From IMG/VR virus record IMGVR_UViG_3300021375_000018, positions 23,119 to 87,118 of that record: 64,000 bases of DNA, one strand, 5' to 3'. Shown in pieces: positions 31,057-38,326 of this stretch. Made by a program: the position numbers and the translations under genes. Under the pieces are notes generated by a model, which saw only the letters and a program-made list of their open reading frames with translations, was not told the origin of the DNA and searched no databases. Source of the DNA: a virus. Numbering within the stretch: position 1 is the stretch's first letter; the number at the start of each line of letters is the position of its first letter.

Positions 31057-31173
31057 GTGTAAATTAAATATTAATTAATTATAATAAATAAAACAAGAAA
31101 GGTATATAATTTGTCTATTGAGTTAATAACACCACCAAATAGATTCGTATCTCTTCACTCACACTCAACATTT
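31057..31173 (+). repeat. Repeat copy 1: promoter + RBS + dnaE 5' stub (MSIELITPPNRFVSLHSHSTF)
   Basis: GTGTAAA-N16-TATAAT, AAAGGT, TTG at 31111; near-identical to 36328-36445; peptide matches the PHP HxH motif of DnaE. Confidence 0.9.
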
Positions 31174-31190
31174 AAAAGTATAAATTTAAA

Positions 31191-32189
31191 TTATTTTCCA
31201 CCATTTAACTTTTTATATAATAAATTTAAATTTCTTTCTAATGATTCTTCTCTATTACCTACTTCAAATTCATCTAATTCGTTTTCATACTTACTAAAGA
31301 TATAACCTTTTTTAGATACTTCAACATCTAAATCATATGCTAAATCACAATCTTCAATAATACCTGATAATGCTTCATATAACGCTTCTAAATCTTCTTC
31401 TCTATTTGTACTAAAATTAAAAGGACTTACTTCTTCTAAATATTGAGACATAGTTGACATGTAAAATCTAGGAGTACTAAAAATTCTATCTCTACAGTCA
31501 ATAGTGTCAACTATTATTTCATGACTACTACTGAATATATTAAATATTCCTTTTCCTCTTTTTAATAATTCTGACATTTCTTTCGACTTCGGAACAAACC
31601 TTATTTCAAGTATATTGTCTACTTTACATGATGACAAGTCTTTCAAAGAGTCTTCAAGTTTAAACGAAAGATAATTGCTGTGTGATGACTCAGGTAAATA
31701 TAATGCCATATACCAATTATTATCGCTAATATTACCTTTATTTGTAATAGGAGTAATATTATGGATAGCTTTAAGCTGTAAGTCTATCATATAGTCATGA
31801 TAGTCTCTGTCAAGATTTTCTTGGTTGTCTAAATAGTCAGTATATTTTTTTTGATCAAAAAAGAAGTGATCTGGATCTTTAATACTTGGATCGACATAAT
31901 CTTTACTTTCTGCATCTAATTCGTTTTCTTCTGGTCTTGTAAGACTAAATCTTGTCATGTCATACCACCAAGTTGCGTATATAGATTTTCCACCACCACC
32001 ACCTCCTCGTCTTTTCTGTAATTCTCCATTGTTTCCTCCTCCACCACTGCCACTTTTCTTTAATTCATTTTCTATGGTATTGAAAAAGTAGGTTTGTTTT
32101 TCTTTTGACGAATCACGAAACTCATTAATAAAATTCTGTTTCCATTCAGTTAATAGTTCTTTAAACTCGCTTCTGTTTAGTTTACTCAT
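31191..32189 (-). CDS. Leader-family cargo protein A
   Basis: MSKLNRSEFKELLTEWKQNFINE followed by Gly-rich linker and unknown body. Confidence 0.8.
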   Translation of the reverse strand: MSKLNRSEFKELLTEWKQNFINEFRDSSKEKQTYFFNTIENELKKSGSGGGGNNGELQKRRGGGGGGKSIYATWWYDMTRFSLTRPEENELDAESKDYVDPSIKDPDHFFFDQKKYTDYLDNQENLDRDYHDYMIDLQLKAIHNITPITNKGNISDNNWYMALYLPESSHSNYLSFKLEDSLKDLSSCKVDNILEIRFVPKSKEMSELLKRGKGIFNIFSSSHEIIVDTIDCRDRIFSTPRFYMSTMSQYLEEVSPFNFSTNREEDLEALYEALSGIIEDCDLAYDLDVEVSKKGYIFSKYENELDEFEVGNREESLERNLNLLYKKLNGGK

Positions 32190-32214
32190 TTATAATCCTT
32201 TGTAATTTTAATAT

Positions 32215-32341
32215 GTGTAAATTAAATATCAATTAATTATAATAAATAAAAAACAAATAAATAAAAAACAAATAAATAAAAACAAGAAAGGTATATAATT
32301 TGTCTATTGAATTAATAAAACCACCCGATAGATTTGTCCCA
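32215..32341 (+). repeat. Repeat copy 2: promoter + degenerate dnaE 5' stub (MSIELIKPPDRFVP)
   Basis: Same promoter and RBS, internal AAATAAATAAAAAAC duplication, TTG at 32300. Confidence 0.85.
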
Positions 32342-32348
32342 TTTTTAT

Positions 32349-33341
32349 CTATCCATGCGAGTATGTTTGAAGTAATATTTTATCTTCTAAAAAGCTTCCA
32401 ATAAAGTTGTAACACATGTGTACTTTACTAAAAAACAGTTTTAAATATTCTATATCTTCTTGAGAAATTTCTGACACAATGCTTGAGCATTGATTTAAAA
32501 AAGCTTCTATTCCTTTTTCGTTATTTGGCAAAGACCTTATATGGTGTGCTACGCTTGCAAAGTTATCACCATCTCCTACACTGCTGCCTAATCTTGTCAA
32601 ACCGTCAGCTGACTGCCCGCCGGCGGCACCTTCTACAACAAATTTTTTAATGATCATGTTTAGATTCTTTTTATTATTAAATAAATCATTAAGCTCGATA
32701 TAAGGCGCAAAACTTTCGTTGGCAAGTATATCTTCAAAGTAGTGAAAGACATCATGCTTTAATTCCCATTGTAAGTGACTCTTCCACACTTTTTGATCAG
32801 AAATATTAAGTATATTGTTGATCGATCCACTAGCCATTTCATCAACCATATTAATCATTCTAGGGAAGTATATCATGAGACCAACATTGTCGCTAGCTAA
32901 TCTTTGCAAGTCTCTTTTTGACTGGGCTATTTGGTCTTTTATGTTTTGTTTTTTTTCTTCAACCTTTACGTTATTCATACTCATATCTTTATAAAACAAA
33001 TTCTCTTTGTTAAGAAGATCATTGAAAACTAAATCTAATATCTCTAGAATCTCTGTAATACTATTTTTATGAAGAATAATGCTACTTTCGTAGGCTTTGT
33101 AAACACTTTTGCTCCTAGACATAACATCATGCATAAAACTACCGAATGTATGCTCACTTATAGAAAAATCTCCGATAGCATACAAATTTAAATCAATTGG
33201 GACTTTTTTGACATAATCTTTTTGTGTAGGCGTTAACCCTTTAAAATCAACTAAATTTGTATTGACAGTTCTTTCATTTATAAAGTTTTGTTTCCATTCA
33301 GTTAACAACTCTTTAAATTCTTTTCTACTTAACTTGCTCAT
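32349..33341 (-). CDS. Leader-family cargo protein B
   Basis: MSKLSRKEFKELLTEWKQNFINE; body contains WELKHDVFHYF and GDNFAS, resembling WLFSHDFMHLF and GDNSAS in 25755-26921. Confidence 0.8.
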   Translation of the reverse strand: MSKLSRKEFKELLTEWKQNFINERTVNTNLVDFKGLTPTQKDYVKKVPIDLNLYAIGDFSISEHTFGSFMHDVMSRSKSVYKAYESSIILHKNSITEILEILDLVFNDLLNKENLFYKDMSMNNVKVEEKKQNIKDQIAQSKRDLQRLASDNVGLMIYFPRMINMVDEMASGSINNILNISDQKVWKSHLQWELKHDVFHYFEDILANESFAPYIELNDLFNNKKNLNMIIKKFVVEGAAGGQSADGLTRLGSSVGDGDNFASVAHHIRSLPNNEKGIEAFLNQCSSIVSEISQEDIEYLKLFFSKVHMCYNFIGSFLEDKILLQTYSHG

Positions 33342-36302: not shown

Positions 36303-36327
36303 TTATAATCCTTAGTAATTTTTATAT

Positions 36328-36445
36328 GTGTAAATTAAATATTAATTAATTATAATAAATAAAAACAAAAAAGGTATATAATTTGTCTATTGAATTAATA
36401 ACACCACCAAATAGATTTGTATCTCTTCACTCACACTCAACTTTT
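36328..36445 (+). repeat. Repeat copy 3: promoter + dnaE 5' stub (MSIELITPPNRFVSLHSHSTF)
   Basis: TTG at 36383; frame continues LKLSMLFWEGKLNTCK* and is in phase with dnaE. Confidence 0.9.
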
Positions 36446-36486
36446 TTAAAACTTAGTATGTTATTTTGGGAAGGCAAATTAAATAC

Positions 36487-36515
36487 GTGTAAATAACAAT
36501 ATTATATTTTATAAT
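36487..36515 (+). promoter_or_regulatory. Phage promoter GTGTAAA-N16-TATAAT for dnaE
   Basis: Exact motif; AAGGA RBS and ATG at 36551. Confidence 0.75.
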
Positions 36516-36550
36516 AAACCATAATTTAAATAATCTACATAAGGAATAAA

Positions 36551-38326
36551 ATGAATAATACATTTAATACGGAAAGGAGGTATCTAGAGAAGGTTGAACT
36601 TGAACTGCTTACACCTAACAGATTTGTTAGCTTGCATTCGCATTCAACCTTCTCGTAGATATCTACGTTTGATGGATTAGGTTATCCAGCAGATCACATC
36701 AACTTTGTTCTTTCTGAATCTCAAGGTATGGATGCTTGGGCTTTAACAGATCATGGAAACGGCAACGGTCTTGCTCATGCTCATTCACATGCTGTTAAAA
36801 TGCAAAAGAAAGGTCAAAAGTTTAGACAAATCTACGGTGTTGAATTCTATTTTGTACCTTCTCTAGAACAATGGTCAAAAGAATACTCAGATCATCGTCA
36901 AGCAGTCAAAGATGCAAAAACAGCAGCAGCTGCTGAAAAGAAATCAAAAGAAAAAGTTGATATCGATGCTGATGATGAAAGTGGTGGTTTAGTTATTGAA
37001 GACGAAGAAGAAACAAAGAAAATCGATATCCTTAAAGATGAATGGAAACGACGTTATCACCTTGTAGTCACTGCACGCAATAGAAAAGGCTTAAACAATC
37101 TTTTTACTCTTGTTAAGAAATCATATAAATATGGATTCTATCGATATCCTCGAATTGACTTTAAAATGTTAAAAGAACACGGTGAAGGTCTTCATGTATC
37201 AACAGCATGTTTAGGCGGACTTTTTAGCAATAGAATTCTAAGAGGTAATGCTCACAATAAATCACGTGATGAAATACAAAAAGATCTTCTAAACTTAACA
37301 GATAGATTTACAGACGCAGTTGGTTTAGAAAACTTTAAACTAGAACTACAATTTAACAAACTTAATAAGCAACACATTGTCAATGATTATTTGATAGAAC
37401 ATCATAAGCTAACAGGTATTCCATTGATATCTACAGCAGACTCACACTATCCAACAAATGATAAATGGCAAGCAAGAGAACTATACAAGAAACTTGGATG
37501 GTTAGGAAAAAAAGATGGAATGACTTTACCTACATTTGAAGATCTTAAATGTGAGTTATATCCAAAAAATGCACAACAAATGTGGGATGAGTTTTTAGAA
37601 TCATATCCTCTATATGATTTCTATAAAGGTAACGAAGAACTAGTCAAAGAATCAATTGAAAGAACACATGATATTGTATGGGAAAACTTTGAAGATACAT
37701 GGATCGATGTAGGTGCAAAACTACCTACGATATCAATTCCTAATAAAACGCCATTTCAGCACTTATGTGATTTAGTTAAAAGTGCTTTAATCAAAGAAGA
37801 ACTTCATAGTAATAAAGAATACGTTGAACGCGCAAAGTATGAATTATCTGATATTAAATACTTAGGCCATGCAGCTTATTTTATTACAATGTATGAGATC
37901 TTTAAAAAAGCTGAAACAAAGACTTTATTTGGAGCAGGACGTGGATCAGGTGCAGGTAGCTTAGTTAATTATCTTTTAGGTATTACTCAAATTGATCCGA
38001 TACCTTACAACTTACTTTGGAGCAGATTCTTAGGTAGACATAGATGTTTGGATGAAGACATATACATAATGTCTGAAAGTGGTAAAAAGAAACTTAAAGA
38101 TGTTGTTGAAGGCGAAAAAGTATTAACACATACAGGACAATATCAAAGAATTCTTGACAAAGCTGTGACACAACATGACATGGCAATTGAAATAAAGTTT
38201 AATGGTCGCAATATTATTTGTTCTCCTAATCATAGATGGATTATTAATCGCGATGGCGCCGAAGTAGAAACGATGGCATGTCACTTAAAAAAAGGTGACA
38301 AACTTATAAAAAATATACATACTTGA
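36551..38326 (+). CDS. dnaE: DNA polymerase III alpha fragment 1 (PHP domain + palm start + split intein N1), with in-frame TAG at 36656-36658
   Basis: FVSLHSHSTFS*ISTFDG in frame with ALTDHG, GVEFY, HLVV, TACLGG, ADSHY, GRGSGAGSLV, SRFL; after R-H-R the intein begins CLDED. Confidence 0.9.
38045..38323 (+). mobile_element. Split intein 1, N-fragment (93 aa)
   Basis: Block A CLDEDIYI, VLTHTG, block B ICSPNHRW, LKKGDKL then stop. Confidence 0.9.

Follow-up and report, generated by a model that had tools for sequence, protein, structure and literature searches.

In the known cases of ribosomal hopping, a mismatch at the landing codon lowers the efficiency of the hop. Phage genes can also be split and yet remain functional, as part of one preprint describes for MobE in nrdA and for T4 genes 39/60 (bioRxiv 10.1101/2022.08.31.505936). 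The locus described here belongs to a marine phage and contains an array of genes upstream of the DNA polymerase gene dnaE, which is itself interrupted by a short coding gap. The hop that we propose across this gap is likened to T4 gene 60/MobA, and a literature search found no published hop in dnaE. The explanation that we favor, and consider probable as a whole, combines a stack of genes upstream of dnaE, a homing-endonuclease cassette inside dnaE, and the hop.

Organization of the uvsE-dnaE Interval

The window, the whole stretch of 64,000 nt that was analyzed, contains between uvsE and dnaE an array of three unrelated minus-strand genes (332, 330, and 954 residues), each paired with a copy of a dnaE promoter-like motif and a truncated 5' stub of dnaE (Table 1). 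An earlier note on this DNA had listed the repeats, and all of the elements are present. These are the promoter and stub copies at 31053-31173 and 36303-36445, whose stubs are 95% identical over 84 nt, a degenerate copy at 32190-32337 with a stub match to about nt 38, and a decayed promoter. Past the stub match of unit 2, the plus strand overlaps the 3' end of the 330-residue minus-strand gene. The fourth version of the peptide is found as an ORF (36551-36658) that encodes MNNTFNTERRYLEKVELELLTPNRFVSLHSHSTFS, followed by TAG, in frame with ISTFDG.... Stubs 1 and 3 do lose similarity after HSHSTF (...ACN TTT), both ending after codon 21. They differ at three positions, all third codon positions and synonymous, as expected if the 5' ends come from two functional alleles. 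The intact allele of the relative L013 matches unit 3 with 98.6% identity across promoter and 5' end; unit 3 is what remains of the original 5' end of dnaE in an L013-like backbone.

The stop codon of uvsE directly adjoins the first copy of the promoter-like motif. The same abutment is found beside a deleted uvsE remnant in L009, and the position of uvsE next to the dnaE promoter looks ancestral, as the earlier note proposed. No empty allele consisting of uvsE, promoter, and dnaE occurs among 78 related loci. In relatives, the motif is kept upstream of dnaE whichever gene precedes. A 31-mer from the motif occurs three times with at most one mismatch and not once in 100 shuffles. The label "promoter" is based on recurrence of the motif only (7 sites against 1.1 expected); a sigma-70 scan found 40 sites against 39.9 expected.

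Table 1. Features of the uvsE-dnaE interval, in coordinates of the window
Feature	Position	Strand	Remarks
uvsE (UV damage endonuclease)	30136..31053	+	Pfam UvdE, E 2.1e-49
Unit 1 promoter-like motif (ATGTGTAAAT...TATAAT, RBS)	31053-31110	+	
dnaE stub 1, codons 1-21, TTG-MSIELITPPNRFVSLHSHSTF	31111-31173	+	break after ...ACA TTT
Cargo gene A, 332 aa, leader MSKLNRSEFKELLTEWKQNFINE and unique body	31191..32189	-	
Unit 2 promoter-like motif with internal tandem insertion	32190-32299	+	
Stub 2	32300-32337	+	recognizable to about dnaE nt 38 only
Cargo gene B, 330 aa, same leader	32349..33341	-	last codons overlap decayed stub 2 end
Decayed unit	33342..33437	.	promoter remnant and leader fragment
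Promoter remnant, cut within promoter	33345-33389		91% over 46 nt
16-codon leader fragment with RBS, fused to promoter remnant	33390-33437	-	adjoins cargo gene C stop
Cargo gene C, 954 aa, leader variant MSKLNRKEAKKILIDWKDFLI	33438..36302	-	
Unit 3 promoter-like motif	36303-36382	+	
dnaE stub 3, codons 1-21, TTG-MSIELITPPNRFVSLHSHSTF	36383-36445	+	
Cassette left end (TTAAAACTTAGTATGT), then last nuclease codons (..LFWEGK) and former stop	36446..36482	+	
Cassette's own promoter-like motif (ACGTGTAAAT..TATAAT) and RBS	36482..36550	+	73% to dnaE promoter copies
Recoded dnaE N terminus, 35 codons, 13-aa N-terminal extension	36551..36655	+	ends at take-off Ser TCG (36653-36655)
mRNA hairpin (predicted)	36578..36664	+	5' arm in N-terminal extension; 3' arm = STFS codons, gap, landing codon
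Coding gap TAGATA, in-frame stop and 3 nt	36656..36661	+	
dnaE from landing Ser TCT (36662-36664) to first split-intein N-half	36662..38326	+	

Minus-strand Cargo Genes

As had been noted, the three cargo ORFs have a common 23-residue leader, MSKL[NS]R.E[FA]K.[LI]L..WK, and the leader DNA is 80-81% identical over 69 nt. Outside the leader, the three proteins show no similarity to each other. A fourth full member of the leader family is situated at 25755-26921. No Pfam or PHROG family was found for cargo genes A and B. The four confirmed loci related to cargo gene A in IMG/VR all match residues 1-23 only, and no donor genome for this gene was found there. A homologue of cargo gene B (43% identical) lies upstream of the nuclease cassette in L056. 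Cargo gene C belongs to a large and diverse phage family that includes the gene at 42986-44902; it had no usable match in Atlas, and a copy of about 91% identity is present in an independent strain (run X5). The leader-family cargo probably consists of late virion or internal-head proteins.

A Degenerate Homing-Endonuclease Cassette in dnaE

On the basis of sequence comparison, stub 3 and the fourth copy of the peptide are a degenerate homing-endonuclease cassette inserted at codon 21/22. In L017, L020, L022/23, and L056, an ORF of 302-316 residues lies between the allele-1 stub and the recoded copy, and these nuclease-bearing loci have the same left end and the same ...WEGK* C terminus as the remnant in the window. 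The nuclease domain matches an ORF situated between the split-intein halves of the dnaE in the window (E 8e-13). The nuclease gene is kept in 24 of 29 gapped contigs. Of the five without it, the window and L033 retain remnants, with L033 representing an independent deletion of the same kind.

The cassette moves among these phages. The recoded copy in the window is 100% identical to those of L017 and L079, but identity drops to 82-84% over the 300 nt of dnaE that follow; dnaE is intact in L013 and L039, which are closer to the window (96% over this part of dnaE). Synonymous diversity (pS) is 0.29-0.32 in the cassette and 0.63-0.70 downstream, and pN/pS in the recoded N terminus is 0.16-0.23 (10 alleles).

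We propose that a free-standing endonuclease of the PD-(D/E)XK type would have entered an L013-like dnaE after codon 21, leaving stub 3. The cassette brings a promoter, an RBS, and a synonymously recoded N terminus with the 13-residue extension, as well as the take-off serine codon, the 6-nt gap TAGATA, and the landing serine codon. The nuclease gene would have been deleted later, with only its first and last few bases remaining. Judged from T4 MobA/gene 60, the target site of the nuclease is probably disrupted by the gap, and this would amount to target-site immunity. The earlier note had proposed repeated insertion at codon 21/22; an element does insert exactly there and brings a promoter and a dnaE 5' end, but it is a plus-strand homing-endonuclease cassette without minus-strand cargo.

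Junctions and Growth of the Array

Relatives differ, as predicted, in how many genes are inserted between uvsE and dnaE: one in L009, two in L021, L039, and the strain of run X5, and three in the window. In the X5 strain, uvsE is followed by 944 other nt and then by the equivalent of window 33270-36378 at about 91% identity, with similarity resuming inside the leader. The junctions in the window lie at dnaE nt 63, at about nt 38, inside the promoter, and again at nt 63. In relatives they are found at nt 5 (L039), 7 (L018), and 11 (L009) and inside the promoter (L019/L011). The same breakpoint had been predicted for all alleles, with scatter named beforehand as the contrary outcome, and the junctions are scattered: 8 distinct junctions fall at 6 positions, and only those of stubs 1 and 3 coincide.

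The array is best explained by crossovers, either unequal or illegitimate, between relatives infecting the same cell. Minus-strand genes of the leader family would gather upstream of dnaE as a hyperplastic gene stack, which would gain or exchange genes through out-of-register recombination between two related phages. One crossover would take place in sequence that both phages share, be it uvsE, the leader, or the dnaE promoter; the other would be illegitimate, at any point in the promoter or in dnaE nt 1-63. Since every such event would copy the dnaE promoter and a stub of variable length, the internal promoter-stub copies would be scars and not recombination sites.

Stub 1 ends exactly where the cassette inserted, although no cassette left end follows it. 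Pure scatter does not predict this, and such an exact coincidence would seem unlikely by chance with the other junctions spread over about 150 nt. The cassette is demonstrably mobile, and a double-strand break by its nuclease at codon 21/22 might have driven the accretion. Repair of the cut dnaE would then sometimes use a heterologous co-infecting genome as template, with one end joined illegitimately at the break. This would add a cargo gene together with a promoter and a 63-nt stub, and the other junctions would have arisen without the nuclease. However, stub 1 is the one junction that speaks for this course of events. Furthermore, five of the eight junctions are elsewhere in dnaE or the promoter, and cleavage by the nuclease at codon 21/22 is presumed. 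We consider a role of the nuclease in the accretion unlikely.

The Coding Gap and a Proposed Ribosomal Hop

Contigs of three runs, each from a different study (X1, X4, and X5), contain the identical TAGATA gap; one of these runs is a possible source of this DNA. Among the 75 related loci that match at the N terminus, 13 carry a gap (L081 counted). The 13 gap variants are 2-8 nt long and all begin with a stop codon; because the gapped sequences are related, these counts do not represent independent events. Nine of the variants change the frame, and in four a stop in the downstream frame directly precedes the landing codon. If spacing of the motif is assumed to be kept, which is how the landing codon was defined, landing and take-off codons agree in at least two of three nucleotides in all 13 variants. 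Seven match at two positions only, with the mismatch at the first base in six and at the second base in L100. All 23 gapped alleles have a TCN take-off codon, and 30 of 56 intact alleles have AGY; the landing serine is TCT in the window and AGT or AGC in close intact relatives.

These features, together with the selection and the hairpin described below, indicate that the gap is probably bypassed by ribosomal hopping. The peptidyl-tRNA-Ser would leave TCG at the stop, the mRNA would slide by 9 nt, and the tRNA would re-pair at TCT, restoring the exact PHP motif HSHSTFSTFDG. The gap-spanning peptide predicted for such a hop is ...HSHSTFSTFDGLGYPADHINFVL..., with no extra residues. In L113-115, a +1 slip on TTTT would lead into an open frame too.

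Alternatively, the gap might not be hopped, and dnaE might be expressed by read-through of TAG with a 3-residue insertion, as two pieces, or with Met 36728 as its start; the gapped genes might also be in decay. Working split phage genes such as those cited above lend this some plausibility, as does the landing codon TTG of L100, a possible restart codon. Read-through could apply only to the window and three other variants, where the gap is in frame; the nine others are out of frame, several with two stops. No start codon occurs in the window between the landing codon and Met 36728, and in 11 of the 13 variants the downstream frame lacks ATG, GTG, and TTG both at the landing codon and in the 36 nt that precede it, the exceptions being L100 and L081 (TTG 36 nt upstream). 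The 22 codons from the landing site to the first Met are under purifying selection, with a pN/pS of 0.09 compared with 0.11 in intact alleles. In a relative with a complete genome (239,550 bp with terminal repeats; CheckV 100%), the gapped dnaE is the sole PF07733 match. The 7 tRNAs of that genome include no suppressor tRNA and no tRNA-Ser, and TAG is the stop in 14 of its 149 long ORFs. Expression or decay without a hop would also leave the codon match and the covarying hairpin without a role, and it appears improbable.

Predicted Hairpin at the Take-off Site

The predicted hairpin in the window has a folding energy of -38.4 kcal/mol (z -6.56), and none of 200 shuffles folds as well. The median MFE is -41.7 in 24 gapped matches, one of them spurious, compared with -17.5 in 56 intact alleles. 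Pairing covers at least 9 of 12 take-off positions in 23 of 23 gapped alleles and in 4 of 56 intact ones. In 20 sequences the hairpin covaries, with four or more pair types at positions -9, -7, -6, and -4, and it is present in all 23 gapped alleles. The 5' arm would be encoded by the N-terminal extension, and the 3' arm would end at the take-off codon. In the proposed hop, re-zipping of the hairpin behind the ribosome probably drives the slide or rectifies it.

Site-specific Capture and Assembly Integrity

The earlier note had interpreted the locus as an integron-like capture site, in which a dedicated recombination system would add cassettes of cargo, promoter, and codons 1-21 at codon 21/22. 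This holds in part: stubs 1 and 3 end after codon 21, a real element targets this site, and gene number varies. The element carries a plus-strand nuclease gene and not the cargo genes, however, and the sequences after stubs 1 and 2 are unlike its left end (of 2000 random 22-mers, 1244 and 1842, respectively, score equally well). Apart from the overall scatter, the break of stub 2 lies near nt 38, and that of the fourth unit falls within the promoter. A search that was positive in 14 of 14 control genomes found no tyrosine recombinase or integrase (PF00589) in the record or in a complete relative, and no contig joining 31173 or 36445 to 36662 was found in four runs. Capture by a dedicated system is very unlikely in our view; crossovers between relatives remain the preferred origin of the stack.

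The array is not obviously a misassembly. In the probable source run X1, the Logan contigs end in every promoter repeat (31082/31092, 32237/32292, and 36353/36372), so that the order of the blocks rests on the IMG assembly and on equal depths. A chimera of uvsE-dnaE intervals from several co-occurring strains, joined via these repeats, would agree with such contig ends and with the lack of a listed contig covering the whole stretch, but it is highly improbable, because unique-block depths of 13.6, 14.1, 14.5, and 12.7 and a depth of 39.5 for the shared promoter 41-mer (about three copies) fit one genome, all stub/cargo junctions are internal to contigs, and independently assembled relatives carry similar internal promoter-stub scars. 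In addition, a 6288-nt contig from run X5 links uvsE to the unit-3 promoter in a variant array.

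A coding gap in the PHP motif of dnaE

The locus lies within a replication module, where genes for a UvsX-like recombinase, a DnaB-like helicase, ribonucleotide reductase and UvsE accompany a dnaE that is fractured by two split inteins and was identified by its PHP and DNA_pol3_alpha domains (Pfam). The IMG/VR record is 87 kb long and 34% complete by CheckV; the window comprises its bases 23119-87118. A blastn search with 30136-37400 against 50,697 phage records gave no match. Between 36728 and 42925, fragment 1 of dnaE ends in an intein N-half and is followed by a Zn-finger/Endo-I-like ORF (38365-39288). 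Fragment 2 (39197-40894) has an intein C-half at its start and a second N-half at its end; behind it are a second endonuclease-like ORF (40825-41802, DUF559 match) and fragment 3, which starts at about 41843 behind a copy of the promoter-like motif at 41795.

The reading frame of dnaE is interrupted in its N-terminal PHP motif. In the window it runs to ...HSHSTFS, meets TAG ATA, and is taken up again at TCT ACG TTT GAT GGA (STFDG). The last serine codon before the stop (TCG, 36653-36655) is referred to here as the take-off codon and the serine codon at 36662-36664 as the landing codon, the latter being defined as the codon that preserves the spacing H-x-H-x-x-F-S-x-[FMY]-D-G. The same arrangement is found in 13 of the 75 related IMG/VR loci with an N-terminal match (L081 included). 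More distant cases came from a search with an alignment of the nuclease described below, for a total of 29 gapped contigs with the window included; these counts are of related sequences and not of independent events. The gap is identical in contigs of three sequencing runs from three studies, one run being a possible source of the window DNA.

There are 13 gap variants, with lengths of 2, 4, 4, 5, 6, 6, 6, 6, 7, 7, 7, 7 and 8 nt. A stop codon stands directly behind a TCN serine codon in all 13 (TAG in 5, TAA in 8). The frame is shifted in nine, and in four a stop right before the landing codon closes the downstream frame. In eleven of the variants the downstream frame lacks any ATG, GTG or TTG over the 36 nt that precede the landing codon; the two exceptions are L100, where TTG is the landing codon itself, and L081, where a TTG lies 36 nt upstream. 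Given the definition by motif spacing, take-off and landing codons have at least two of three bases in common in 13/13 variants: six pairs are TCN/TCN', six match at positions 2-3 only (TCG/ACG, TCG/GCG, TCT/ACT, TCC/ACC) and one is TCG/TTG. The take-off codon is TCN in 23/23 gapped alleles and never AGY (0/23), whereas AGY encodes that serine in 30 of 56 intact alleles. At the position of the landing TCT, the closest intact relatives of the window have AGT instead.

The sequence behind the gap retains the marks of a protein-coding gene, with a pN/pS of 0.09 at a pS of 0.63 over the 22 codons from the landing codon to the first methionine, compared with 0.11 in intact alleles. The gapped gene is the only dnaE in a complete relative (G001; 239,550 bp, terminal repeats, CheckV 100%), whose seven tRNAs include no suppressor and none for serine, and in which TAG ends 14 of 149 long ORFs. 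No tRNA was found in the window's own record, which at 34% completeness gives this result no weight.

A hop of the peptidyl-tRNA-Ser from take-off to landing codon would fit all the gap variants. The product would read ...HSHSTFSTFDGLGYPADH..., whereas read-through of the stop would give ...STFS-X-I-S-TFDG.... A single frameshift, a restart of translation behind the gap, a protein made in two pieces and decay of the gene were considered along with read-through, and each of them fails for most variants. A literature search of article full texts returned no description of such a dnaE gap, though dnaE loci or cassettes relevant to its novelty may be given in the supplements to Dassa 2009 and to Manning and Atkins 2022. 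Genes of this kind will be annotated as truncated or as pseudogenes unless the gap is recognised.

A hairpin ends at the take-off codon

The region 36578-36664 of the window folds with -38.4 kcal/mol (z -6.56), and none of 200 shuffles was as good. When 120-nt windows were anchored on the serine codon, the median minimum free energy was -41.7 (z -3.9) for the gapped hits (24, including a spurious one), compared with -17.5 (z -0.1) for the 56 intact alleles. The spurious hit (L060:1630), from the regular-expression survey, lies 8 kb from dnaE in a frame full of stops, and it was left out of the set of 23. Of the 12 positions between -10 and +2, nine or more pair with an upstream arm in 23/23 gapped alleles and in 4/56 intact ones. 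The 3' arm of the hairpin ends at the take-off codon in all 23 gapped alleles, and the hairpin is essentially absent from the 56 intact alleles.

The arm sequences vary by lineage with compensatory changes, and at least four pair types occur at each of positions -9, -7, -6 and -4 (20 sequences). The covariation comes from folding each sequence singly with the take-off codon as anchor; in a MAFFT alignment of the 20 gap regions the 5' arms were out of register, and RNAalifold recovered only 8 pairs from it. The 5' arm sits within an N-terminal extension, and because of this 26-35 codons precede the serine in gapped alleles, compared with 18-22 in the intact alleles inspected. In the window's group the stem also spans the gap and the landing codon, and gap base 36659 (A or G) covaries with the 5' arm. 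The stem could re-pair behind the ribosome and so favour forward sliding, an aid to the hop that we infer by analogy; the idea reportedly derives from work on T4 gene 60.

The gap belongs to a putative homing-endonuclease cassette

Comparison with relatives identifies stub 3 (the dnaE 5' end that stops at 36445) and the recoded N-terminus behind it as the scar of a putative homing-endonuclease cassette. In L017, L020, L022/23 and L056 a dnaE stub ending in ...ACN TTT is followed by TAAAAA(C/G)(C/T)TAGTATG. After this left end come an ORF of 302-316 aa ending in ...WEGK*, a second promoter-like motif and the recoded N-terminus. The C-terminal domain of the cassette ORF is similar (41% over 74 aa, E 8e-13) to the ORF that the first pair of split-intein halves encloses in the window dnaE, and this latter ORF itself has a weak Phage_endo_I match. 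The cassette ORF has no HNH match in Pfam, only one to DUF7487 below the cut-off, and a PDB sequence search returned nothing at E up to 1; we consider it a nuclease with a probable PD-(D/E)XK-like domain. The domain alignment would place it with the free-standing nucleases of the fractured genes (Dassa et al. 2009, PMC2677866).

In the window only the left end, TTAAAACTTAGTATGT, and the last six nuclease codons (LFWEGK) are left, at 36446-36482; the nuclease gene has therefore been deleted here. L033 carries an independent deletion of the same kind, while L079, L143 and L025 have lost stub and nuclease gene completely and keep the recoded N-terminus and the gap. Altogether the nuclease ORF lies directly upstream in 24 of the 29 gapped contigs, and of the five that have lost it the window and L033 retain remnants. 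A 17-mer scan of IMG/VR gave 28 stretches, 13 with the cassette and 15 unrelated chance matches, and added only two new contigs, L139 (cut off) and L143.

The window, L017 and L079 have exactly the same recoded copy (100% identity), but their identity to the window falls to 84% (L017) and 82% (L079) over the 300 nt of dnaE that follow. In that stretch the window shares 96% identity with L013 and L039, whose alleles are intact; unit 3 matches L013 at 98.6%. Synonymous divergence (pS) among ten cassettes is 0.29-0.32, compared with 0.63-0.70 in the gene downstream. The cassette is present at one and the same site in 13 of 75 related loci, the rest being intact, and it is more alike between phages than its flanks are, which indicates that it is mobile among them. 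Such a cassette would show how a homing element can sit in a motif that tolerates no insertion.

Six further contigs (L102, L107, L108 and L110-L112) have a dnaE that is intact, ungapped and short at its N-terminus, and directly upstream of it, about 60-70 nt away, lies the ORF of a more distant member of the nuclease family. They may represent a free-standing state ancestral to the cassette, or the state after loss of the gap.

Comparison with bypassing and fractured genes

To our knowledge, programmed translational bypassing has long been known from essentially one bacterial-virus case, that of T4 gene 60 with MobA, an HNH nuclease. The dnaE cassette has its closest known counterpart there, but differs in its host gene (the PHP motif of dnaE rather than a topoisomerase), in the nuclease domain (PD-(D/E)XK-like rather than HNH), in gap length (2-8 rather than 50 nt) and in the take-off residue (Ser instead of Gly or Asp). 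As its conserved RNA element it has a long hairpin 5' of the take-off codon, where T4 has a take-off stem-loop inside the gap; the whole 5' end of the gene is duplicated and recoded here, whereas the T4/MobA layout has two ORFs with C- and N-terminal tails.

Going by the T4 account (bioRxiv 10.1101/2022.08.31.505936), the two nevertheless have much in common. A free-standing nuclease gene and a gap form one cassette, inserted in a conserved motif of an essential replication gene; a stop directly follows the take-off codon, whose match with the landing codon is full or nearly so; the cassette supplies an N-terminal extension; and the gap persists after the nuclease gene is lost. By analogy, the dnaE cassette would work like T4 gene 60/MobA without being a member of that system, since host gene and nuclease type differ; the likeness is one of features. 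Its gap would likewise guard against self-cleavage. Manning and Atkins call the T4 bypass cassette 'unique' (bioRxiv 10.1101/2022.08.31.505936); the dnaE cassette would be an independent one, in another essential gene and with another nuclease type. Its 13 natural gap variants and covarying hairpin provide a compact series for studying ribosome take-off, slide and landing.

The second point of comparison is the fractured genes of metagenomic phages, dnaE included, in which free-standing 'Vsr-like' or GIY-YIG homing endonuclease genes lie between split-intein halves (PMC2677866). Habitat and host gene are the same, the window dnaE is itself fractured twice in that way, and the ORF in its first fracture is a relative of the cassette nuclease. 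In the model proposed for the fractured genes, the invading element supplies stop, promoter and start signals for the broken gene (PMC2677866), and with the dnaE cassette, too, these signals come with the element. In contrast to the fractured genes, there is no intein at the dnaE 5' site, and continuity of the protein would be provided by the ribosome instead of by protein splicing. Dassa et al. 2009 mention bypassing only as an unlikely alternative for long inserts (PMC2677866).

The repeated upstream motif

The repeated motif belongs to dnaE: RYGTGTAAAT...TATAAT...AAGAAAGGTATATAAT-TTG lies upstream of the gene in 78 related IMG/VR loci, whether the neighbour is a leader-family gene or an unrelated plus-strand gene. 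Copies of its core stand before uvsE, the third dnaE fragment and a further window gene as well (7 sites versus 1.1 expected), and a 31-mer of the motif occurs three times in the window versus 0 in 100 shuffles. The motif is probably a promoter, a label that stays putative because a sigma-70 scan was uninformative (40 promoter-like sites versus 39.9 expected); terminators numbered 0. A search of Rfam over 30900-37000 gave a single sub-threshold match to the S15 leader (E 0.56), and there was no RNA run among the 24 listed runs.

The internal copies open short plus-strand ORFs at 31111-31305, 32300-32404 and 36383-36496 (64, 34 and 37 aa), all of which run antisense into the 3' ends of cargo genes on the minus strand. 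Transcription from the motif, should it act as an early promoter, would produce RNA antisense to the adjacent cargo gene.

Cargo genes with a common leader

The minus-strand cargo genes A, B and C between the stubs are ORFs of 332, 330 and 954 aa, which have a 23-aa leader and its ribosome binding site in common and nothing else. In the window and its relatives the leader ends in FINE, FISE, FLNE, LLSE or FIIE, and nearly all members fit [FL]-[ILV]-x-E. In T4, [LI]-x-E is the prohead-protease site motif that closes the capsid-targeting leader. A T4-like gp21-type prohead protease (PF03420) is encoded by the complete relative (G001:C1:122706-123125, E 2.3e-29, over the cut-off); the window's own record has no match, a result without weight at 34% completeness. 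By analogy, the cargo proteins may be packaged head proteins that are processed by the protease, with the leader as a capsid-targeting tag.

Searches by family, fold and homologue returned no function for the cargo. There was no Pfam or PHROG match, save one weak match to a PHROG of unknown function (E 0.009), and no usable feature match in the Atlas, where structural matches had a TM by query of at most 0.24 for a model with a pLDDT of 0.49. For cargo gene A, the four of four confirmed IMG/VR loci examined as donors match the leader only.

Scattered junctions in the stacked units

The elements that the earlier note had listed are all present at the locus.

Elements of the array upstream of dnaE, in window positions
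Feature	Position	Status
Promoter-like motif and dnaE codons 1-21	31053-31173	present
Degenerate copy (unit 2)	32190-32337	present
Promoter remnant	33345-33389	present
Promoter-like motif and dnaE codons 1-21	36303-36445	present
Recoded dnaE N-terminus	starts 36551	present

An assembly artefact might produce such repeats, and contigs of the probable source run (X1) do end inside each promoter repeat. Against this, the four unique blocks have depths of 13.6, 14.1, 14.5 and 12.7, with 39.5 for the shared 41-mer, and every stub/cargo junction lies within a contig. Depths and junctions fit one genome with three promoter copies; the order of the blocks rests on the IMG assembly.

The earlier note had proposed integron-like, site-specific capture of cassettes at one breakpoint, codon 21/22 of dnaE. 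This was not borne out, as the junctions are scattered and no PF00589 recombinase was found. In the window two junctions lie at dnaE nt 63 and one at about nt 38, and a fourth, joined to a 16-codon leader fragment, falls within the promoter; those of relatives lie at nt 5 (L039), nt 7 (L018), nt 11 (L009) and inside the promoter (L019/L011). The eight junctions thus fall at six positions (nt 5, 7, 11, about 38, 63 twice, and two places within the promoter), a scatter that the earlier note had itself named as speaking against such capture. Seven further joints listed, the one in run X5 aside, have sides of only 21-23 nt and were not used. The search for tyrosine recombinases (PF00589), positive in 14/14 control genomes, found none in the 87-kb record, which is 34% complete, or in the complete 239.5-kb relative. 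The predicted junctions of 31173 or 36445 with 36662, and circular cassettes, did not appear in the contigs of four runs, which drop rare forms. As in integrons, unrelated genes lie beside a fixed point and differ between relatives. Unlike integrons, the array has no integrase found, no attC-like common junction and scattered breakpoints, and its cargo is on the opposite strand with its own signals.

Another origin for the stack is consistent with the comparisons. The leader-family genes next to dnaE differ between close relatives: two of them follow uvsE in L021 and L039; in L009 a deleted uvsE remnant is followed by the promoter, a stub of 11 nt and a single such gene. The only differences between stubs 1 and 3 are three synonymous ones, which fits 5' ends that came from two functional alleles and not a copy made in place. 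An independent seawater run of 2024 (X5) has a 6288-nt contig with the end of uvsE, 944 other bases and then window positions 33270-36378 at about 91% identity; its similarity to the window picks up again inside a leader. We infer that the stack is a product of out-of-register recombination between co-infecting relatives, in which each event would have one crossover in shared sequence and the other illegitimate. The array adds one more example to a known class of plastic regions.

T4-type phages have hyperplastic regions with modular shuffling through repeated promoter-bearing motifs (PeSL), and an internal-protein locus where diverse genes carry a common capsid-targeting leader. Like those regions, the array stacks unrelated small genes in one place, flanks each with a repeated promoter-containing module and turns over rapidly between close relatives, and its leaders resemble those of the T4 internal proteins in being short conserved N-termini that end in [LI]-x-E. 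Unlike them, its repeated module is a promoter with the 5' end of an essential gene, on the strand opposite to the stacked genes, and its junctions are illegitimate and scattered. The array marks a fast-turnover locus of leader-tagged, possibly injected, proteins. Repeated promoter-stub units beside an essential gene can be scars of unequal recombination, and breakpoints in relatives should be checked before such units are read as recombination sites.

We think it unlikely that a single selfish nuclease drives both the cassette and the stack. By such a scheme, the cut at codon 21/22 would spread a minimal, self-contained hop device, whose N-terminal extension would exist to encode the 5' arm of the hairpin, and the hairpin would pull the mRNA 5-11 nt through the ribosome. 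Repair of the cut off a heterologous co-infecting genome would occasionally bring in another leader-tagged gene together with one more promoter and stub, and homing-endonuclease attack on an essential gene would then fuel growth and turnover of an injected-protein arsenal. The ending of stub 1 at the cassette insertion site would be accounted for only by such a hybrid of nuclease cut and heterologous repair. A left end of the nuclease cassette behind stubs 1 and 2 was considered and rejected: the 22 nt after each aligned locally with six left ends no better than shuffles did, and 1244 and 1842 of 2000 random window 22-mers, respectively, scored as well.

Several smaller features were noted in and near the array. 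Unit 2 contains a short tandem duplication at 32244-32285, AAAAAACAAATAAAT-like and of about 2.5 copies, between the -10-like box and the ribosome binding site; read mapping passed over 32238-32291 as a repeat. In L009 (8750-8870), uvsE is cut to an in-frame remnant of about 31 N-terminal codons joined to the last 12 or so, which still abuts the dnaE promoter-like motif and the 11-nt stub. A fourth full leader-family gene, of 388 aa, lies on the minus strand at 25755-26921, divergent to an adjoining endonuclease-like gene (27016-27795). Orthologues of the latter are 64-72% identical in closer relatives and 46-47% in three more distant loci, and in most relatives they sit behind an epimerase-like gene. 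The peptide FLSIHAS.F occurs both in the plus-strand reading past stub 2 (32339-32365) and in the 388-aa protein (26343-26369, minus-strand gene), with mostly different codons and no DNA similarity between the two sites; it also resembles the PHP motif FVSLHSHSTF.
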